64,000 nt of DNA from Escherichia coli (GTDB taxonomy: Bacteria; Pseudomonadota; Gammaproteobacteria; Enterobacterales; Enterobacteriaceae). The notes below the pieces were generated by a model, which searched no databases, was not told the DNA's origin, and saw only the letters and a program-made list of their open reading frames with translations. Positions 3,838-60,423 of the stretch are shown here, one piece after another (positions within the stretch are counted from its first letter, which is position 1; each line of letters starts with the position of its first letter). The stretch lies in NCBI RefSeq assembly GCF_044324875.1, contig NZ_CP172185.1; one strand, written 5' to 3'. The position numbers and the translations under genes are program-made.

Positions 3838-3913
3838 CAGCGCATCAGATTCTTTATAATGACGCCCGTTTCCCCCCCTTGGGTACACCGAAAGCTTAGA
3901 AGACGAGAGACTT

Positions 3914-6900
3914 ATGATGGAAATTCTGCGTGGTTCGCCTGCATTGTCGGCATTCCGAATCAACAAACTGCTGGCACGTTTTCAGGCTGCCAGGCTCCCG
4001 GTTCACACTATTTACGCCGAGTATGTCCATTTTGCTGACCTCAATGCGCCGTTAAACGATGATGAGCACGCACAACTTGAACGCCTGCTGAAATATGGCC
4101 CGGCACTCGCCAGCCACGCCCCGCAAGGCAAACTCCTGCTGGTGACCCCGCGTCCTGGCACCATCTCTCCCTGGTCTTCGAAAGCGACCGATATTGCCCA
4201 TAACTGCGGGCTGCAACAGGTTAACCGCCTTGAGCGCGGCGTTGCTTACTATATAGAAGCCGGTACGCTGACCAATGAACAATGGCAGCAGGTTACCGCT
4301 GAACTGCACGACCGCATGATGGAAACGGTCTTTTTTGCTTTAGATGATGCAGAGCAGCTGTTTGCACACCATCAACCGACTCCGGTCACCAGCGTTGATT
4401 TGCTGGGGCAGGGCCGTCAGGCGCTAATCGACGCTAACCTGCGTCTTGGCCTGGCACTGGCGGAAGATGAAATTGACTATTTGCAGGATGCTTTCACAAA
4501 GCTTGGTCGTAACCCGAACGACATCGAACTGTATATGTTTGCCCAGGCGAACTCCGAGCACTGCCGCCACAAAATTTTTAACGCCGACTGGGTTATCGAT
4601 GGTGAACAGCAGCCGAAATCGCTGTTTAAGATGATCAAAAACACCTTCGAAACCACGCCGGATCACGTTCTCTCTGCTTATAAAGATAACGCCGCCGTAA
4701 TGGAAGGTTCTGAAGTGGGCCGCTACTTTGCTGACCACGAAACGGGCCGCTACGATTTCCATCAGGAACCGGCGCATATTCTGATGAAAGTCGAAACTCA
4801 CAACCACCCGACGGCGATTTCTCCGTGGCCGGGCGCGGCGACCGGTTCCGGCGGTGAAATCCGCGATGAAGGTGCCACCGGGCGCGGCGCGAAGCCGAAA
4901 GCTGGTTTGGTTGGTTTCTCCGTTTCCAACCTGCGAATTCCTGGCTTCGAACAACCGTGGGAAGAAGATTTCGGTAAGCCTGAGCGCATTGTCACCGCGC
5001 TGGACATCATGACCGAAGGCCCGCTGGGTGGCGCGGCATTTAACAACGAATTTGGTCGTCCGGCACTGAACGGCTACTTCCGTACTTATGAAGAAAAAGT
5101 GAATAGCCACAATGGCGAAGAGCTGCGCGGTTATCACAAACCGATCATGCTGGCGGGCGGGATCGGCAACATTCGCGCCGATCACGTACAAAAAGGCGAG
5201 ATCAACGTTGGTGCGAAGCTGGTCGTTCTCGGCGGCCCGGCAATGAACATCGGTCTTGGCGGCGGCGCGGCGTCTTCCATGGCGTCTGGTCAGTCTGATG
5301 CCGACCTCGACTTTGCTTCCGTACAGCGCGACAACCCGGAGATGGAGCGTCGCTGCCAGGAAGTGATCGACCGTTGCTGGCAGCTTGGTGATGCCAACCC
5401 AATCCTGTTTATCCACGACGTCGGCGCTGGCGGTCTTTCTAACGCCATGCCGGAACTGGTGAGCGACGGCGGGCGCGGCGGTAAATTCGAACTGCGCGAT
5501 ATCCTGAGCGACGAACCGGGCATGAGCCCGCTGGAAATCTGGTGTAACGAATCCCAGGAACGCTACGTGCTGGCGGTTGCTGCCGATCAGTTACCGCTGT
5601 TTGACGAACTGTGTAAGCGTGAGCGCGCGCCATACGCGGTGATTGGTGAAGCGACCGAAGAACTGCATCTTTCTTTGCACGATCGTCATTTTGATAATCA
5701 GCCGATCGATCTGCCGCTGGACGTCCTGCTTGGTAAAACGCCGAAGATGACCCGCGAAGTACAAACGCTGAAAGCGAAGGGTGATGCGCTGGTTCGTGAA
5801 GGGATCACCATCGCTGACGCGGTGAAACGCGTACTGCATCTGCCGACTGTGGCAGAGAAAACTTTCCTGGTGACCATCGGTGACCGCAGCGTAACTGGCA
5901 TGGTGGCGCGCGATCAGATGGTGGGTCCGTGGCAGGTGCCGGTCGCTAACTGCGCGGTCACTACCGCCAGCCTTGACAGCTACTATGGTGAAGCGATGGC
6001 GATTGGCGAGCGTGCGCCGGTTGCGCTGCTGGATTTCGCCGCCTCTGCCCGTCTGGCGGTCGGTGAAGCGTTAACCAATATTGCCGCAACACAGATTGGC
6101 GATATCAAACGCATTAAACTTTCCGCCAACTGGATGGCGGCGGCAGGCCACCCTGGTGAAGATGCGGGCCTGTATGAAGCCGTTAAAGCCGTGGGCGAAG
6201 AGCTTTGTCCGGCGCTGGGCCTGACGATCCCGGTGGGTAAAGACTCTATGTCGATGAAAACCCGCTGGCAGGAAGGTAACGAAGAGCGCGAAATGACGTC
6301 GCCGTTGTCGCTGGTGATTTCCGCATTTGCCCGCGTGGAAGATGTACGTCACACCATTACGCCGCAGCTTTCTACCGAAGATAACGCACTGCTGCTGATT
6401 GATTTGGGCAAAGGCAATAACGCGCTGGGCGCAACGGCGCTGGCGCAGGTTTATCGTCAGCTTGGCGACAAACCGGCAGATGTACGCGATGTCGCGCAAC
6501 TGAAAGGCTTCTATGACGCGGTTCAGGCGCTGGTAGCACAGCGTAAGCTGCTCGCGTACCACGACCGCTCTGATGGCGGCCTGCTGGTAACGCTGGCGGA
6601 AATGGCCTTTGCTGGTCATTGCGGCATTGACGCGGATATCGCCACTCTGGGTGACGATCGCCTGGCGGCGTTGTTTAACGAAGAACTGGGGGCGGTGATT
6701 CAGGTTCGTGCCGCTGACCGTGAAGCAGTTGAAGCGGTACTGGCACAGCATGGGCTTGCTGATTGCGTCCATTATGTTGGGCAGGCGGTTTCCGGTGACC
6801 GTTTTGTGATTACCGCCAACGGGCAGACTGTATTCAGCGAAAGCCGCACCACGTTGCGTGTCTGGTGGGCAGAAACTACCTGGCAGATGCAGCGCCTGCG

Positions 6901-7801
6901 TGACAACCCGGAGTGTGCCGACCAGGAGCACCAGGCGAAATCAAACGACGCCGATCCGGGCCTGAATGTAAAACTGTCGTTCGATATCAACGAAGATGTG
7001 GCAGCACCGTATATTGCCACTGGCGCACGTCCGAAAGTTGCTGTGCTGCGTGAGCAGGGCGTGAACTCGCATGTTGAAATGGCGGCAGCTTTCCACCGTG
7101 CAGGCTTCGATGCTATCGACGTGCATATGAGCGACCTGCTGGCTGGACGCACGGGCCTGGAGGATTTCCACGCCCTGGTCGCGTGCGGTGGTTTCTCCTA
7201 CGGTGATGTGCTGGGTGCCGGTGAAGGTTGGGCGAAGTCTATCCTGTTCAATGACCGTGTACGCGATGAGTTTGCAACCTTCTTCCACCGTCCGCAAACG
7301 CTGGCGCTGGGGGTATGTAACGGTTGCCAGATGATGTCTAATCTGCGCGAACTGATCCCTGGTAGTGAGTTGTGGCCACGTTTTGTGCGCAATACCTCCG
7401 ATCGCTTTGAAGCGCGTTTCAGCCTGGTTGAAGTAACCCAAAGTCCGTCTCTGCTGTTGCAGGGGATGGTGGGCTCGCAAATGCCGATTGCTGTCTCTCA
7501 TGGTGAAGGGCGCGTGGAAGTGCGTGATGCGGCGCATCTGGCGGCACTGGAAAGCAAAGGGCTGGTGGCACTGCGCTATGTCGATAACTTCGGCAAAGTC
7601 ACTGAAACCTACCCAGCTAACCCGAACGGTTCTCCGAATGGTATTACGGCGGTCACGACTGAAAGTGGTCGAGTCACCATTATGATGCCGCACCCGGAAC
7701 GTGTTTTCCGTACTGTCAGCAACTCCTGGCATCCGGAAAACTGGGGCGAGGATGGGCCGTGGATGCGTATTTTCCGCAATGCACGTAAGCAGTTGGGGTA
7801 A
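3914..7801 (+). CDS. purL: phosphoribosylformylglycinamidine synthase (FGAM synthase)
   Basis: 1295-aa ORF; single-chain large PurL with AIRS-like domains and a C-terminal glutamine amidotransferase (GVCNGCQ catalytic Cys motif). Confidence 0.97.
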
Positions 7802-7858
7802 GCCGTCAACCCATTGGTTTTGCAGCCGGATGAGGCATTAAGCACCAACTACTATTAT

Positions 7859-7885
7859 AAGCTCCCAACTTCGGGAGCTTTTTTG
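7859..7885 (+). terminator. rho-independent terminator of purL
   Basis: GC-rich hairpin AGCTCCCAACTTCGGGAGCT followed by TTTTTTG, about 60 bp after the purL stop. Confidence 0.8.
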
Positions 7886-7999
7886 TGTCTGTAAATCACG
7901 ACAATGGGTGGTTTGCCGTGTCGCTTTCTGGCGACATTTAACTCATTGATTTTAATATTATCTAATAAGTTTATCTTAAGTTGTCTCTTTTTAGCGACA
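7886..7999. promoter_or_regulatory. three GlrR activator binding sites (TGTC-N10-GACA) upstream of glmY
   Basis: TGTCtgtaaatcacGACA at 7886-7903, TGTCgctttctggcGACA at 7919-7936, TGTCtctttttagcGACA at 7982-7999; all have exact 10-bp spacing and lie 90-230 bp upstream of the sigma54 promoter. Confidence 0.8.
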
Positions 8000-8088
8000 C
8001 AGTGGCTGATTTACAGCCAAATAGCGAAGAAGCCATAAATCCCTCAAAGCGGCGTATAATCAGTACGTTACCAAACTATTTTCTTTAT

Positions 8089-8104
8089 TGGCACAGTTAC
8101 TGCA
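8089..8104 (+). promoter_or_regulatory. sigma54 (-24/-12) promoter of glmY, overlapping a possible sigma70 -10 (CATAAT)
   Basis: TGGCAC-agtta-CTGCA matches TGGCAC-N5-TTGCW; predicted start about 12 nt downstream at 8116. Confidence 0.8.
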
Positions 8105-8115
8105 TAATAGTAACC

Positions 8116-8300
8116 AGTGGCTCATTCACCGACTTATGTCAGCCCCTTCGGGACGTGCTACATAAAATTCGAATGACGCACAACAAGGTGCCTGCCGTCC
8201 AACTTCTGATATCAGCGTAGCTATATCAACCATCGGGCGAAACGTCGAGTTAGGCACCGCCTTATTCCATAACAAAGCCGGGTAATTCCCGGCTTTGTTG
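8116..8300 (+). ncRNA. glmY: GlmY small regulatory RNA
   Basis: About 185 nt from the sigma54 start (AGTGGCTCATTCACCGAC...) to an intrinsic terminator with a perfect 12-bp stem AACAAAGCCGGG/CCCGGCTTTGTT (8271-8299); sits immediately upstream of glrK as expected. Confidence 0.85.
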
Positions 8301-8357
8301 TATCTGAACTTCCCCTCGGTTAGCATCAGGCTATTCGCGTCTGACGAGAGTAACACC

Positions 8358-9785
8358 TTGAAACGCTGGCCCGTTTTTCCCCGCTCATTACGACAACTGG
8401 TAATGCTGGCATTTTTGCTGATTCTGCTGCCCCTGTTGGTGCTGGCATGGCAAGCCTGGCAAAGCCTGAATGCACTTAGCGATCAGGCGGCGCTGGTTAA
8501 CCGCACTACGCTTATTGATGCCCGGCGTAGTGAAGCGATGACCAACGCGGCACTGGAGATGGAGCGCAGCTACCGTCAGTATTGCGTGCTGGACGACCCT
8601 ACGCTTGCGAAGGTTTATCAAAGCCAGCGCAAGCGTTATAGCGAAATGCTCGATGCCCACGCAGGCGTACTGCCAGACGATAAACTTTACCAGGCATTGC
8701 GTCAGGACTTGAACAATCTGGCCCAACTTCAGTGTAACAACAGTGGTCCCGATGCCGCCGCCGCCGCGCGTCTTGAAGCCTTTGCCAGTGCCAATACCGA
8801 AATGGTGCAGGCCACGCGCACAGTGGTGTTCTCTCGTGGGCAGCAACTTCAGCGTGAAATCGCCGAACGTGGGCAATATTTTGGTTGGCAATCGCTGGTG
8901 TTATTTCTGGTGAGTCTGGTGATGGTGCTACTTTTCACGAGGATGATTATCGGTCCGGTGAAAAATATCGAGCGCATGATCAACCGGCTGGGGGAAGGGC
9001 GTTCTCTGGGCAATAGTGTCTCGTTCAGTGGACCGAGCGAGTTACGCTCGGTTGGGCAACGTATTCTTTGGTTAAGTGAGCGCCTGTCATGGCTGGAATC
9101 CCAACGTCATCAATTCTTAAGACATTTATCTCATGAATTAAAAACGCCGCTGGCGAGTATGCGCGAGGGCACTGAATTACTGGCTGACCAGGTTGTCGGG
9201 CCGCTTACGCCAGAGCAAAAAGAGGTGGTGAGCATCCTCGATAGCAGCAGCCGCAATTTGCAAAAACTGATCGAACAACTGCTTGATTACAACCGTAAAC
9301 AGGCGGACAGTGCGGTGGAACTGGAGAATGTTGAATTAGCACCGCTGGTGGAGACAGTAGTTTCTGCTCATAGCCTGCCCGCACGGGCTAAAATGATGCA
9401 TACCGACGTCGATCTCCAAGCAACAGCTTGCCTGGCGGAGCCAATGCTGCTGATGAGCGTACTGGATAATCTTTACTCCAATGCTGTGCACTACGGGACT
9501 GAATCCGGTAACATTTGCCTTCGCAGCAGTTTACATGGCGCGCGGGTTTATATTGATGTCATCAATACAGGCACACCCATTCCGCAAGAGGAACGCGCCA
9601 TGATCTTTGAACCCTTTTTTCAGGGAAGCCACCAGCGAAAAGGGGCGGTGAAGGGCAGCGGTCTGGGATTAAGCATTGCCAGGGATTGTATTCGCCGTAT
9701 GCAGGGGGAACTGTATCTGGTCGACGAGAGCGGGCAAGACGTTTGCTTCCGCATTGAATTGCCGTCGTCGAAAAACACGAAATAA
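8358..9785 (+). CDS. glrK: sensor histidine kinase of the GlrK/GlrR (QseE/QseF) two-component system
   Basis: HisKA H-box LSHELKTPL, HATPase motifs, two TM segments; probable TTG start at 8358 (475 aa), the six-frame ORF extends to 8295. Confidence 0.9.
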   Translation: MKRWPVFPRSLRQLVMLAFLLILLPLLVLAWQAWQSLNALSDQAALVNRTTLIDARRSEAMTNAALEMERSYRQYCVLDDPTLAKVYQSQRKRYSEMLDAHAGVLPDDKLYQALRQDLNNLAQLQCNNSGPDAAAAARLEAFASANTEMVQATRTVVFSRGQQLQREIAERGQYFGWQSLVLFLVSLVMVLLFTRMIIGPVKNIERMINRLGEGRSLGNSVSFSGPSELRSVGQRILWLSERLSWLESQRHQFLRHLSHELKTPLASMREGTELLADQVVGPLTPEQKEVVSILDSSSRNLQKLIEQLLDYNRKQADSAVELENVELAPLVETVVSAHSLPARAKMMHTDVDLQATACLAEPMLLMSVLDNLYSNAVHYGTESGNICLRSSLHGARVYIDVINTGTPIPQEERAMIFEPFFQGSHQRKGAVKGSGLGLSIARDCIRRMQGELYLVDESGQDVCFRIELPSSKNTK

Positions 9786-9949
9786 TGTTAAGAGCCTATC
9801 CCATCAGGCTATTTTATTTGCCAGTTCGGCCCCGGGCGGAGCTCGAAATCCTCACGTACGACATGTACGCTCCGGTTTCTCCGCGCTGTCTGTGCCCAAA
9901 CTGCCTGCAACAATTACGCCCACTGGGATAGGCATTAAGTCTGGTGAAT

Positions 9950-10663
9950 ATGCGACACATTTTTCAACGATTATTGCCCCGACGGCTGTGGCTGGCAGGG
10001 CTGCCATGTCTGGCATTGCTGGGTTGCGTGCAGAGTCACAATAAACCAGCCATTGATACGCCAGCAGAAGAAAAAATTCCGGTTTATCAACTGGCTGACT
10101 ATCTTTCTACTGAATGTAGCGACATCTGGGCGCTGCAAGGTAAATCAACCGAAACCAATCCGCTTTACTGGCTGCGGGCGATGGATTGTGCTGATCGTTT
10201 AATGCCTGCGCAGTCGCGTCAGCAAGCTCGCCAATATGACGACGGCAGCTGGCAAAAGACCTTTAAACAAGGGATTTTGCTCGCCGACGCCAAAATTACG
10301 CCGTATGAGCGCCGCCAGCTGGTCGCGCGCATTGATGCGCTAAGTACCGAGATCCCGGCACAGGTTCGCCCTCTGTATCAACTCTGGCGCGACGGTCAGG
10401 CGCTGCAACTGCAACTGGCGGAAGAGCGCCAACGCTACGGCAAACTCCAGCAATCCAGCGACAGCGAGCTGGATACATTGCGCCAGCAACATCACGTTCT
10501 ACAGCAGCAACTGGAACTCACCACCCGCAAGCTGGAAAACCTGACTGATATTGAACGCCAGCTCTCGACCCGCAAACCGGCTGGAAATTTCTCGCCGGAT
10601 ACGCCGCACGAGAGTGAAAAGCCCGCGCCATCCACCCATGAGGTCACTCCTGATGAGCCATAA
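9950..10663 (+). CDS. qseG: outer-membrane lipoprotein QseG (YfhG)
   Basis: Lipoprotein signal peptide with lipobox LLGC; Gln-rich coiled-coil C-terminus; lies between glrK and glrR and overlaps the glrR start by 11 nt. Confidence 0.8.
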   Translation: MRHIFQRLLPRRLWLAGLPCLALLGCVQSHNKPAIDTPAEEKIPVYQLADYLSTECSDIWALQGKSTETNPLYWLRAMDCADRLMPAQSRQQARQYDDGSWQKTFKQGILLADAKITPYERRQLVARIDALSTEIPAQVRPLYQLWRDGQALQLQLAEERQRYGKLQQSSDSELDTLRQQHHVLQQQLELTTRKLENLTDIERQLSTRKPAGNFSPDTPHESEKPAPSTHEVTPDEP

Positions 10664-11987
10664 ACCTGCGCATTTATTATTGGTCGATGACGATCCGGGA
10701 TTGCTGAAACTGCTTGGCCTGCGCCTGACCAGCGAAGGCTACAGCGTGGTCACGGCGGAAAGTGGTGCTGAAGGATTACGGGTACTGAATCGCGAAAAAG
10801 TAGATTTAGTTATCAGCGACCTGCGGATGGATGAAATGGATGGTATGCAGCTGTTTGCTGAAATCCAGAAAGTGCAGCCGGGAATGCCGGTAATTATTCT
10901 TACCGCACATGGTTCTATTCCCGATGCCGTTGCTGCAACACAGCAGGGCGTGTTCAGTTTCCTCACCAAGCCTGTCGATAAAGACGCGCTATATCAGGCA
11001 ATTGATGATGCGTTGGAACAATCCGCGCCAGCCACCGACGAACGCTGGCGCGAGGCGATTGTCACCCGCAGCCCGCTGATGCTGCGTTTGCTGGAACAGG
11101 CGCGGCTGGTGGCGCAATCAGACGTCAGCGTTTTGATTAATGGCCAGAGCGGCACCGGGAAAGAGATTTTCGCCCAGGCTATCCACAACGCCAGCCCGCG
11201 CAATAGCAAACCATTTATTGCTATTAACTGTGGTGCATTGCCCGAGCAATTGCTGGAGTCGGAGCTGTTTGGTCATGCGCGTGGCGCGTTTACTGGCGCT
11301 GTCAGCAATCGCGAAGGTTTATTCCAGGCGGCGGAAGGCGGTACGCTATTTCTCGATGAGATTGGCGATATGCCCGCACCGTTGCAGGTCAAACTGCTGC
11401 GCGTGTTGCAGGAGCGTAAAGTGCGCCCGCTGGGCAGTAACCGCGATATTGATATCGACGTGCGGATTATTTCCGCCACTCACCGCGACCTGCCAAAAGC
11501 GATGGCGCGCGGGGAATTCCGCGAAGATCTCTATTACCGCCTCAATGTTGTCAGCCTGAAAATTCCGGCTCTGGCAGAGCGCACAGAAGACATTCCGCTA
11601 CTGGCAAATCACCTGTTGCGCCAGGCGGCAGAGCGACATAAACCGTTTGTCCGCGCGTTCTCCACCGATGCAATGAAACGCCTGATGACCGCTAGCTGGC
11701 CGGGTAATGTACGCCAGTTGGTCAACGTGATTGAACAGTGCGTGGCGCTGACCTCATCTCCGGTGATTAGTGATGCATTAGTAGAGCAGGCGCTGGAGGG
11801 TGAAAATACGGCGCTGCCAACCTTTGTTGAGGCACGTAATCAGTTTGAACTCAACTATTTGCGTAAGCTGCTGCAAATTACCAAAGGCAACGTCACCCAC
11901 GCGGCGAGAATGGCGGGGCGCAACCGGACAGAATTTTATAAACTGCTTTCCCGACACGAGCTGGATGCAAACGATTTCAAGGAATGA
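10653..11987 (+). CDS. glrR: sigma54-dependent response regulator GlrR (QseF)
   Basis: Receiver domain (LLVDDD...D), AAA+ sigma54-interaction domain (GESGTGKE-like, GAFTGA motif) and C-terminal HTH; internal ATG at 10653 gives 444 aa. Confidence 0.92.
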
Positions 11988-12011: not shown

Positions 12012-12386
<375 letters not shown>

Positions 12387-38931: not shown

Positions 38932-38950
38932 TAAAAAGTATTCAGAATCA

Positions 38951-39027
38951 GGCCGGAGTGTTTAACACTCCGTAAACACGGTCGTACATCCAGCCGGTAG
39001 CCTGGTTCCTTGCATTGAGTGATGTAC
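38951..39027 (+). promoter_or_regulatory. structured iscR-iscS intergenic region (stem-loops preceding the iscS ribosome-binding site)
   Basis: Hairpins CGGAGTG-ttta-ACACTCCG and GTACATC...GATGTAC; established site of RyhB-dependent differential stability of the isc mRNA (coordinates approximate). Confidence 0.45.
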
Positions 39028-39042
39028 GGAGTTTATAGAGCA

Positions 39043-44074: not shown

Positions 44075-44200
44075 TGCGCTCGTTCACCCCAGTCACATAG
44101 TTATCTATGCTCCTGGGGCTTCACTCACTTGCCGCGTGATTCGGCCTTTTGGCCTCACCCCTCCGGGGCCAGCGCAAGCGCTGTTCAAAACGCAATGCGT
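44075..44200. repeat. ERIC/IRU repeat element
   Basis: CGCTCGTTCACCCCAGTCAC...ATGCTCCTGGGGCTTCAC match both ERIC primer-site cores (reverse complement of AAGTAAGTGACTGGGGTGAGCG, and ATGTAAGCTCCTGGGGATTCAC); imperfect palindrome in the iscX-pepB spacer. Confidence 0.7.
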
Positions 44201-44282
44201 TTTGTCCTGCAACGCGAATCATTTAGCGGAAAAATCCTGGGGCTGCCAACTGGCGGCCCTTTTACAAAGAAGGATAACTAAA

Positions 44283-45708: not shown

Positions 45709-46485
45709 ATGTCCGAAACAAAAAATGAACTTGAAGACCTGCTGGAAAAAGCAGCAACCGAACCGGCGCACCGCCCGGCCTTTTTCCGTACTCTACTGGA
45801 ATCCACCGTCTGGGTGCCGGGTACGGCGGCGCAGGGCGAGGCTGTGGTTGAAGATAGCGCGCTTGATTTACAGCACTGGGAAAAAGAAGACGGCACCAGC
45901 GTCATTCCTTTTTTTACCTCGTTAGAAGCACTTCAACAGGCGGTTGAAGACGAACAGGCATTTGTCGTAATGCCCGTTCGCACATTGTTTGAGATGACCC
46001 TTGGCGAAACGCTCTTCCTTAATGCCAAACTGCCAACCGGTAAAGAATTTATGCCGCGTGAAATCAGTTTGTTGATTGGTGAAGAAGGAAATCCGCTGAG
46101 CAGCCAGGAAGTACTGGAGGGCGGTGAATCGCTGATATTATCGGAAGTCGCAGAGCCACCAGCACAAATGATTGATTCTCTCACCACCTTATTTAAAACT
46201 ATTAAGCCGGTGAAGCGTGCTTTTATTTGTTCAATTAAAGAGAACGAAGAGTCACAGCCTAATTTACTTATTGGCATTGAAGCCGATGGTGATATCGAAG
46301 AAATTATTCAGGCGGCGGGAAGTGTAGCGACCGATACATTACCTGGCGATGAACCCATCGATATTTGTCAGGTGAAAAAAGGGGAAAAAGGAATTAGCCA
46401 CTTTATTACCGAACATATTGCGCCATTCTATGAACGTCGCTGGGGTGGTTTTTTGCGTGACTTTAAACAGCATCGGATAATCTAA
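45709..46485 (+). CDS. sseB: enhanced serine sensitivity protein SseB
   Basis: 258-aa ORF MSETKNELEDLLEKAATEPAHRPAFF...; synteny between pepB and sseA. Confidence 0.85.
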   Translation: MSETKNELEDLLEKAATEPAHRPAFFRTLLESTVWVPGTAAQGEAVVEDSALDLQHWEKEDGTSVIPFFTSLEALQQAVEDEQAFVVMPVRTLFEMTLGETLFLNAKLPTGKEFMPREISLLIGEEGNPLSSQEVLEGGESLILSEVAEPPAQMIDSLTTLFKTIKPVKRAFICSIKENEESQPNLLIGIEADGDIEEIIQAAGSVATDTLPGDEPIDICQVKKGEKGISHFITEHIAPFYERRWGGFLRDFKQHRII

Positions 46486-46802
46486 AATATGCCGCCCCAA
46501 AGGGCGGCATTCGGGCTTACTTGCTGCTCTGAAGTTTGTTAACCACCAGTAAATTGTTGCCGGAGAGACTCCGGTTATTATTTACCTCGGTTAACAGCGC
46601 ACCAGAAACAATAAGTACGATACAAAAGCACCGTATCTTCATTGTGCGGTCCATGCGAAGACCGCATCACGACAGCACCACTGGCGATATTGCCGCGATA
46701 GCAAGCGCTGAGACGCGCTTGCTCTAACGGTCGCGGAACATCCTTTCCTTAAGCCAGCGCCCGCTTGCGAGACGGCGGAAAGGGCCGCAGTGGATAATAC
46801 AC
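46486..46802 (-). ncRNA. ryfA: RyfA-like RNA copy 1 (putative small-protein toxin mRNA, TimP/RyfA type); 5' end approximate
   Basis: Minus-strand unit between a promoter-like TTGTCA-16-TATTGT (about 46837-46810) and terminator hairpin ATGCCGCCCTTTGGGGCGGCAT plus U-tract (46510-46486); about 310 nt; leader has SD-sequestering CCTTTCC/GGAAAGG stem. Confidence 0.6.
46517..46654 (-). CDS. hypothetical 45-aa small protein with hydrophobic N-terminal segment (candidate type I toxin)
   Basis: ORF MDRTMKIRCFCIVLIVSGALLTEVNNNRSLSGNNLLVVNKLQSSK verified codon by codon; identical in copy 2 except the last residues; no strong Shine-Dalgarno, so start codon uncertain. Confidence 0.35.
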   Translation of the reverse strand: MDRTMKIRCFCIVLIVSGALLTEVNNNRSLSGNNLLVVNKLQSSK

Positions 46803-46865: not shown

Positions 46866-46962
46866 CGCTGAGACGCGCTTGCATTACTACGGTAATACAA
46901 CCTGCTGGAAAGGCCGCGAACCGGACCAGCAACAAAAAACCGCCTGATTTTGGCGGTTTTTT
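46866..46962 (+). ncRNA. putative sRNA 1, divergent from RyfA-like copy 1 (candidate antitoxin RNA, TimR-like)
   Basis: TTGACA (46831-46836) -17 bp- GAGTAT promoter; about 97 nt to intrinsic terminator AAAAAACCGCC-tgatttt-GGCGGTTTTTT (46935-46962); 5' 17 nt identical to the plus strand at 46706-46722. Confidence 0.5.
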
Positions 46963-47079
46963 GTTGTTTAAAGAAAGTGAATTTACATGTTCAAGTAATA
47001 TCTTTTATTGGTTAGTATTTTTAATATTAAGCGAAAATTGTTTATATTTGTCTGAATTCGGACTAATAAGCTAGGTTAT

Positions 47080-47163
47080 TTTATTACCGAACATATTGCG
47101 CCATTCTATGAACGTCGCTGGGGTGGTTTTTTGCGTGACTTTAAACAGAATGGGATAATTTAA
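47080..47163 (+). pseudogene. duplicated 3' fragment of sseB (about 27 C-terminal codons plus stop), non-functional remnant at the repeat junction
   Basis: TTTATTACCGAACATATTGCGCCATTCTATGAACGTCGCTGGGGTGGTTTTTTGCGTGACTTTAAACAG repeated from 46402-46470, followed by a diverged tail and TAA at 47161-47163. Confidence 0.8.
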
Positions 47164-47480
47164 AACATGCCGCCCCAAAGGGCGGCATTCGGGCTTACCT
47201 GCTGTTCTGAAGGTTGTTAACCACCAGTAAATTGTTGCCGGAGAGACTCCGGTTATTATTTACCTCGGTTAACAGCGCACCAGAAACAATAAGTACGATA
47301 CAAAAGCACCGTATCTTCATTGTGCGGTCCATGCGAAGACCGCATCACGACAGCACCACTGGCGATATTGCCGCGATAGCAAGCGCTGTGAAACACCTGC
47401 ATTTACGGCCATGGAACATCCTTTCCTTAAGCCAGCGCCCGTTTGCGAGACGGCGGAAAGGGCCGGTGTCGATAATACGC
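47164..47480 (-). ncRNA. ryfA: RyfA-like RNA copy 2; 5' end approximate
   Basis: Same architecture as copy 1, shifted by 678 bp; terminator hairpin at 47167-47188; leader diverged from copy 1. Confidence 0.6.
47195..47332 (-). CDS. hypothetical 45-aa small protein, paralogue of the 46517-46654 ORF
   Basis: Same ORF as copy 1 with three C-terminal substitutions (K to N, S to N, K to R); frame and length preserved. Confidence 0.35.
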   Translation of the reverse strand: MDRTMKIRCFCIVLIVSGALLTEVNNNRSLSGNNLLVVNNLQNSR

Positions 47481-59194: not shown

Positions 59195-60313
59195 ATGCAT
59201 AACCAGGCTCCAATTCAACGTAGAAAATCAACACGTATTTACGTTGGGAATGTGCCGATTGGCGATGGTGCTCCCATCGCCGTACAGTCCATGACCAATA
59301 CGCGTACGACAGACGTCGAAGCAACGGTCAATCAAATCAAGGCGTTGGAACGTGTTGGCGCTGATATCGTCCGTGTCTCAGTACCGACGATGGACGCGGC
59401 AGAAGCGTTCAAACTCATCAAACAGCAGGTTAACGTGCCGCTGGTGGCTGACATCCACTTCGACTATCGCATTGCGCTGAAAGTAGCGGAATACGGCGTC
59501 GATTGTCTGCGTATTAACCCTGGCAATATCGGTAATGAAGAGCGTATTCGCATGGTGGTTGACTGTGCGCGCGATAAAAACATTCCGATCCGTATTGGCG
59601 TTAACGCCGGATCGCTGGAAAAAGATCTGCAAGAAAAGTATGGCGAACCGACGCCGCAGGCGTTGCTGGAATCCGCCATGCGTCATGTTGATCATCTCGA
59701 TCGCTTGAACTTCGAACAGTTCAAAGTCAGCGTGAAAGCGTCAGACGTCTTCCTCGCTGTTGAGTCTTATCGTTTGCTGGCAAAACAGATCGATCAGCCG
59801 CTGCATCTGGGGATCACCGAAGCGGGTGGTGCGCGCAGCGGGGCGGTTAAATCCGCCATTGGTTTAGGTCTGCTGCTGTCTGAAGGCATTGGCGACACGC
59901 TGCGCGTATCGCTGGCGGCCGATCCGGTTGAAGAGATCAAAGTCGGTTTCGATATTTTGAAATCGCTGCGTATCCGTTCGCGCGGGATCAACTTCATCGC
60001 CTGTCCAACCTGTTCGCGTCAGGAGTTTGATGTTATCGGTACGGTTAACGCGCTGGAGCAACGCCTGGAAGATATCATCACTCCGATGGACGTTTCGATT
60101 ATCGGCTGTGTGGTGAATGGCCCAGGTGAGGCGCTGGTTTCTACACTCGGCGTCACCGGCGGTAACAAGAAAAGCGGCCTCTATGAAGATGGCGTGCGCA
60201 AAGACCGTCTGGACAACAACGATATGATCGACCAGCTGGAAGCGCGCATTCGTGCGAAAGCCAGTCAGCTGGACGAAGCGCGTCGAATTGACGTTCAGCA
60301 GGTTGAAAAATAA
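59195..60313 (+). CDS. ispG: 4-hydroxy-3-methylbut-2-enyl diphosphate synthase
   Basis: 372-aa [31 protein letters not shown]...; [4Fe-4S] cysteines CPTCSR...C. Confidence 0.95.
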
Positions 60314-60423
60314 TAACGTGATGGGAAGCGCCTCGCTTCCCGTGTATGATTGAACCCGCATGGCTCCCGAAACATTGAGGGAAGCGTTGAGGGTTCATTT
60401 TTATATTCAGAAAGAGAATAAAC

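Follow-up and report, generated by a model that had tools for sequence, protein, structure and literature searches.

The purL-glmY-glrK locus

The segment spanning positions 7859-8300 of the 64,000-nucleotide Escherichia coli sequence analysed here (hereafter the window, meaning the whole stretch) lies between purL, which encodes phosphoribosylformylglycinamidine synthase, and the sensor kinase gene glrK (also qseE), and contains the gene of the small RNA GlmY preceded by a compact array of control elements (Table 1). It almost certainly constitutes the purL-glmY intergenic region of E. coli together with the glmY gene, working as published. Throughout this work, positions, statistics, RNA family, neighbouring genes and conservation derive from our own analysis, while binding, sigma-factor dependence, the common start site, IHF dependence and the function of GlmY are taken from the literature.

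The assignment of the transcript to GlmY, as put forward in an earlier sequence-only reading of this DNA, was confirmed by two lines of evidence. The Rfam family RF00128 (GlmY_tke1) matches the plus strand at 8116-8263 with 147.1 bits, the gathering score being 33, and covers model positions 1-163, and Rfam does not place glmY elsewhere. In addition, glmY of E. coli K-12 (b4441, also known as tke1 or sroF; 2691157-2691340, 184 nt) and its flanking purL and glrK genes could be aligned base for base to the window, glmY corresponding to 8116-8299 with one base different. The gene order is likewise that of K-12, with purL upstream and glrK-qseG-glrR-glnB downstream on the same strand, as previously described (PMC3045617). 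From 7780 to 8380 the window shows 100% identity with the chromosome of E. coli O158:H23 strain CFIAFB20140388, and this region was found as one copy in 5425 out of 5426 complete E. coli genomes, always with purL on one side and qseE/glrK on the other.

Two forms of GlmY have been described, of 184 and 148 nt, with 3' RACE ends at 147-149 nt (PMC2377431), and the dominant 3' end in Term-seq data maps to K-12 position 2691192, i.e. GlmY nucleotide 149 (PMC7815308 supplements). The hairpin at the end of the primary transcript was not flagged by a simple terminator scan because its T-tract is interrupted. Immediately downstream, we infer from the sequence that TTGTAT and TAGCAT represent the -35 and -10 hexamers of the sigma-70 promoter of qseE/glrK.

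Rfam matches elsewhere in the window comprise the iscRS stability element (plus strand, 38932-39041), sroE (plus strand, 60313-60404) and a marginal hit to AaHKsRNA22 (minus strand, 44140-44212; 45.3 bits with the gathering score at 39.8). Two full-length copies of ryfA were also identified on the minus strand (46484-46788 and 47162-47466, with 314 and 319 bits), with a match to the IS128 sRNA at 46920-47130 between them, the ryfA locus being a tandem duplication.

Table 1. Features of the purL-glmY-glnB region in the window. Conservation states how large a fraction of the aligned sequences has the base of the window; promoter and box positions are relative to the glmY start (+1, 8116).
Feature	Window positions	Strand	Position relative to +1	Basis and details
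purL	3914..7801	+		ORF; NCBIfam equivalog NF003672, 2274.7 bits (cutoff 783); RefSeq annotation of the 100%-identical strain
purL intrinsic terminator (predicted)	7859..7884	+		8-bp stem AAGCTCCC/GGGAGCTT with 5 G-C pairs, 6-nt loop; stem-loop 7859-7880, T-tract 7879-7884
ABS1, GlrR/QseF site (TGTCTGTAAATCACGACA)	7886..7903		centre -221.5	pattern match; half-sites 0.96/0.95 conserved
ABS2, GlrR/QseF site (TGTCGCTTTCTGGCGACA)	7919..7936		centre -188.5	pattern match; half-sites 0.98/0.97 conserved
Distal IHF consensus site (AATCAATGAGTTA = WATCARNNNNTTR), ABS2-ABS3 interval	7939..7951	-		consensus match; conservation 0.80
ABS3, GlrR/QseF site (TGTCTCTTTTTAGCGACA)	7982..7999		centre -125.5	pattern match; half-sites 0.85/0.96 conserved
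Proximal IHF consensus site (AATCAGTACGTTA), ABS3-promoter interval	8058..8070	+	-58 to -46	consensus match; conservation 0.64
Sigma-54 promoter: -24 TGGCAC, 5-nt spacer, -12 CTGCA	8089..8104	+	-27 to -12	conservation 0.96 (-24) and 0.86 (-12)
CATAAT, -10 of overlapping weak sigma-70 promoter	8103..8108	+	-13 to -8	sequence reading; published -10
glmY primary transcript, 184 nt	8116..8299	+		Rfam RF00128; K-12 b4441 alignment; processed GlmY* end near 8262-8264
GlmY terminator hairpin, 14-bp stem	8269..8301	+		fold -23.4 kcal/mol, z = -7.5
qseE/glrK sigma-70 promoter region (hexamers putative)	8298..8333	+		-35 TTGTAT 8298-8303, -10 TAGCAT 8321-8326, start ~8333
glrK/qseE, sensor kinase, TTG start	8358..9785	+		RefSeq annotation of the identical strain; ORF; histidine-kinase family matches
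qseG (yfhG), lipoprotein	9944..10663	+		NCBIfam NF007997 equivalog, 358 bits (cutoff 234)
glrR/qseF, sigma-54-dependent response regulator	10653..11987	+		NCBIfam NF011695 GlrR equivalog, 982 bits (cutoff 763), full length
glnB	12048..12386			NCBIfam equivalog

Activator sites and superimposed promoters of glmY

The palindromic pattern TGTCNNNNNNNNNNGACA (TGTC-N10-GACA) occurs three times in the 64,000 bases of the window, and all three matches, exact in every specified base, are clustered inside 114 bp upstream of glmY. In shuffled versions of the window the pattern was found 0.82 times on average, with at least three matches in 5 out of 100 shuffles, and the chance that three random points in 64 kb fall so close together is about 3 x (114/64000)^2, i.e. 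~1e-5. The boxes are separated by 33 and 63 bp from centre to centre and start at -230, -197 and -134, that is, more than 100 bp upstream of the transcription start. [quoted passage not shown] GlrR itself, the cognate enhancer-binding protein, is encoded in the same genome ~2.5 kb downstream.

The sigma-54 pattern TGGCACNNNNNYTGCW (TGGCAC-N5-YTGCW) has a single match in the window (shuffle mean 0.22, with a match in 21 out of 100 shuffles), which displays the GG at -24 and the GC at -12 at canonical spacing and places the start on the 5' end of the small RNA. The motif given for glmY in a sigma-54 ChIP-seq study, TTGGCACAGTTACTGCA (Bonocora 2015, PMC4591121), is a 17-mer found at 8088-8104 with no difference. 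The -12 element is overlapped by the hexamer CATAAT, the published -10 of a sigma-70 promoter of glmY, the start nucleotide being common to both promoters (PMC3045617). For the corresponding -35 only weak candidates were found (TTTCTT, 8080-8085), and a simple sigma-70 scan does not report the promoter, presumably because its -35 is weak, in agreement with its published description as 'weak'. [quoted passage not shown]

Exact matches to the IHF consensus WATCARNNNNTTR number 11 in 64 kb, two of which are located here, one on each side of ABS3. Two IHF-like sites with this consensus have been described as flanking ABS3 in E. coli, where the sigma-54 promoter needs IHF (PMC3045617).

ABS1-3, the -24/-12 element, CATAAT and the start region carry the same letters in the window and in K-12, and the boxes occupy the same positions relative to the start. 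Compared with K-12, a handful of substitutions are found, located in the linker DNA that leads from ABS3 to the proximal IHF site as well as in the 3' untranslated stretch of purL, with no functional element changed. The sequence-only reading had identified the three boxes, TGGCAC-N5-CTGCA as a sigma-54 promoter and CATAAT as a sign that a sigma-70 promoter may be superimposed on the sigma-54 one. The boxes proved to be the published ABS1-3, and boxes, promoter and superimposed sigma-70 element agree point for point with the published mapping of the glmY promoter (Reichenbach 2009; Göpel 2011, 2018). The glmY control region and gene had therefore been correctly read, and are already published.

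Conservation of the control region among Enterobacterales and within E. coli

GlmY loci were surveyed in one genome per GTDB species using a pattern of the GlmY 5' end that includes no promoter base. The survey retrieved 120 loci, 112 of which also carry the GlmY 3' motif; the other eight, i.e. five chance matches outside Enterobacterales, Yersinia artesiana and two unclassified enterobacterial loci, were excluded. The layout of the boxes, each allowed at most one mismatch, was assessed in the 109 species loci in which the sequence preceding GlmY is 300 nt or longer. Three boxes spaced 32-33 and 62-64 bp were found in 94 out of these 109 Enterobacterales species, in line with the conservation in related genomes on which the sequence-only reading had made its case depend. 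All three boxes are exact in 25 of the 109 loci, and the background density of boxes (at most one mismatch) elsewhere in the surveyed loci is 0.28 per kb. The sigma-54 element was recognised in 112 out of 113 GlmY loci.

Conservation was further measured as the fraction of bases identical to the window base in an alignment of 110 sequences (the 109 loci and the window). The half-sites of the boxes are 0.85-0.98 identical, with the spacers inside the boxes at 0.41-0.58 and the linkers at 0.32-0.41; values for the individual boxes, both IHF sites and the promoter are given in Table 1.

These results extend what is known of the glmY/glmZ promoters in Enterobacterales such as Salmonella, Yersinia and Proteus, which share three TGTCN10GACA motifs (32-33 and 63 bp apart), IHF-like sites around ABS3 and a sigma-54 promoter. 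The boxes of Enterobacteriaceae are located at -230, -197 and -134, whereas those of Yersinia, Serratia, Proteus, Photorhabdus and Xenorhabdus lie ~16 bp further upstream (near -246, -214 and -151), and ABS3, exact in E. coli, has one mismatch in most Enterobacteriaceae. The CATAAT hexamer has been retained in genera including Escherichia, Citrobacter, Enterobacter, Klebsiella, Raoultella, Kluyvera and Buttiauxella, whereas Yersinia, Serratia, Proteus and Photorhabdus have CATTAT or a different hexamer in its place, broadly as published; CATAAT is also present in most Xenorhabdus and in Providencia. In Proteus mirabilis, glmY has been described as part of a glmY-qseEGF operon in which GlmY has no terminator, in contrast to E. 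coli, in which the genes are not co-transcribed. The P2 promoter of rpoE, the other sigma-54 promoter that QseF activates in E. coli, reportedly depends on the same activator and has upstream activating sequences of a similar kind (PMC6075780), but it belongs to another locus, apparently outside the window, and drives a protein-coding gene.

Within E. coli, the control region (7880-8115) is unusually polymorphic, with 90-99% identity among genomes, and the allele of the window is rare, an identity of at least 99% over this interval being found in 25 out of 5425 E. coli genomes. Much of the 90-95% identity band seen over the larger region 7780-8380 results from an 18-19-nt indel that varies among E. 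coli lineages in the stretch between the purL stop codon and its terminator (window 7802-7858), and from a REP-like palindrome (CCGGATGAGGCATTCACGCCGCATCCGGCATT) that is present in this stretch in strains 134 and AST85 and of which the window and K-12 have half. In eight E. coli sequences spanning the 90-99% range, the half-sites, the positions of the boxes and the promoter are all retained and the changes fall in spacers and linkers, most densely in the linker that separates ABS3 from the proximal IHF site.

Two individual loci of the survey stand out. In Escherichia albertii, ~800 nt lie between the purL stop codon and ABS1, compared with 84 nt in E. coli; one mismatch is present in each of ABS1 and ABS2, and no ABS3 was found within one mismatch. 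This arrangement suggests an insertion between purL and glmY accompanied by some erosion of the sites. The Arsenophonus endosymbiont of Aleurodicus floccissimus is the sole one of the 113 GlmY loci without a recognisable sigma-54 -24/-12 element; its sequence reads TTGACA...TATTAT instead and one box is left, which suggests that a sigma-70 promoter has taken over in this reduced endosymbiont genome.

The purL terminator and a model of glmY control

The predicted terminator of purL, 58 nt past the stop codon, is the only terminator-like site reported in 7500-8600 by a simple scan, and its fold has an energy of -13.6 kcal/mol (z = -4.6). As observed in the sequence-only reading, the activator sites begin one base past its T-tract, G7885 being the single base separating the latter from ABS1. 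Both the terminator and this terminator-G-ABS1 junction were found in all eight E. coli sequences examined. Among 97 species, a hairpin followed by a T-tract was identified upstream of ABS1 in 55, in 51 of them at most 32 nt away from the box, and 42 have none by the criterion used; the gap between T-tract and ABS1 ranges from 0 to 62 nt (median 17). The register of the terminator relative to ABS1 is therefore not conserved, and the sequence upstream of ABS1, including the terminator, is essentially unconserved (0.17 identical to the window base in the 110-sequence alignment). The abutment looks like a lineage-specific result of dense intergenic packing, and not like a functional register that has been conserved.

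Different scenarios might nevertheless be considered for this arrangement. The sequence-only reading had suggested that read-through from purL could influence the expression of glmY or glrK. In such a scenario, polymerases escaping the terminator would cross the GlrR sites and the promoter, producing 5'-extended GlmY precursors or displacing GlrR, IHF or sigma-54 by transcriptional interference, so that purine synthesis would be tied to GlmY/glrK and the one-base gap would be functional. We consider this very unlikely. The invariable junction in E. coli (8 out of 8 sequences) and the proximity of a terminator to ABS1 in about half of the species could be taken in its favour, as could Pseudescherichia vulneris, in which the purL stop codon lies 14 nt from ABS1 with no separate terminator and with terminator-like ABS1/ABS2 palindromes, and the Term-seq tables (PMC7815308), which contain no purL-labelled 3' end, a weak argument, since this may reflect thresholds or truncated tables. 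Against it stand the variable gap, the many species without a terminator and the lack of conservation upstream of ABS1, together with the canonical nature of the terminator itself (-13.6 kcal/mol, 6 U). Moreover, a glmY'(-238 to +22)-lacZ fusion, the upstream endpoint of which corresponds approximately to window position 7878, inside the 3' half of the purL terminator, and from which purL and one half of the hairpin are thus missing, is still expressed in a manner dependent on GlrR and IHF, and ABS1, the box in contact with the terminator, is the one reported to be dispensable (PMC3045617). GlmY has been described as the 184- and 148-nt species only (PMC2377431). As for glrK, read-through from glmY to qseE is virtually absent in K-12, and fusions in which qseE' is preceded by the complete glmY locus resemble those with the qseE promoter alone (PMC6075780). 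No measurement of read-through from purL to glmY was found in the papers and supplements searched. A role of purL read-through is consequently left with no support and with some indirect evidence against it, which falls short of disproof. A related proposal takes the E. coli-wide juxtaposition of terminator and ABS1 as a sign of crosstalk, in which the binding of GlrR, IHF and sigma-54 at the enhancer would be modulated by read-through or by hairpins that the GlrR palindromes form once transcribed into RNA, or in which bound GlrR would act as a roadblock aiding purL termination, the palindromes apparently replacing a missing terminator in a few species. We regard it as equally improbable; if true, it would couple two glutamine-consuming pathways, purine synthesis (PurL) and amino-sugar synthesis (GlmS).

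At the opposite extreme, the three palindromes might be chance matches or sites of another regulator, and the sigma-54 match might be non-functional. Each motif has only eight specified bases, and the shuffled windows yielded both the triple boxes and the sigma-54-like match at the frequencies given above, but the clustering of the boxes within 114 bp is not expected by chance, their spacings and positions relative to +1 are conserved in 94 out of 109 species while their spacers have diverged, and the cognate GlrR gene is close by. Besides that, binding and mutational data have been published for identical boxes in K-12 (PMC3045617), and a sigma-54 ChIP-seq peak lies on the identical 17-mer (PMC4591121). 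Chance palindromes were rejected on the grounds of clustering and conservation and are in effect refuted by the published gel shifts and mutagenesis, the probability left to this scenario being negligible.

In Pseudescherichia vulneris (3911-3990 of the surveyed locus), as well as in Escherichia sp. ESNIH1, which shows the same 14-nt distance between the purL stop codon and ABS1 and likewise has no terminator of its own for purL, the palindromes of ABS1 and ABS2 are perfect and extended, with stems of 11 and 9 bp. The scan flags both boxes as terminator-like, ABS1 solely on the minus strand, and on the purL strand a T-rich tail comes after ABS2. In these species the GlrR sites might, judging from their sequences, double as a purL terminator.

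Our results, none of which contradicts it, are best accommodated by the published regulation of glmY, in which the purL terminator would merely form the upstream edge of a densely packed intergenic region. Phosphorylated GlrR (QseF) would bind the three palindromes, which would be presented on approximately the same side of the helix because their spacings of 33 and 63 bp correspond to about 3 and 6 helical turns. IHF, acting at the consensus sites on either side of ABS3, would bend the DNA, and the bend would bring the GlrR oligomer to the sigma-54 RNA polymerase at the -24/-12 element. The contact between GlrR and polymerase would lead to the open complex and to transcription from 8116, while the weak sigma-70 promoter, using the same start nucleotide, would provide basal expression. 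The 184-nt transcript would stop at its own hairpin and be trimmed to ~148 nt, and the resulting GlmY* would serve as a decoy for RapZ, sparing GlmZ and increasing the synthesis of GlmS.

No new biology emerges from this locus; the modest additions of this work are the survey of box spacing in 109 species and the recognition of the terminator abutment as what looks like lineage-specific packing. Its interest lies in glmY itself, a textbook-level small RNA gene in which two sigma factors use one start site, and which feeds the GlmY/GlmZ/RapZ circuit balancing the synthesis of cell-envelope precursors.
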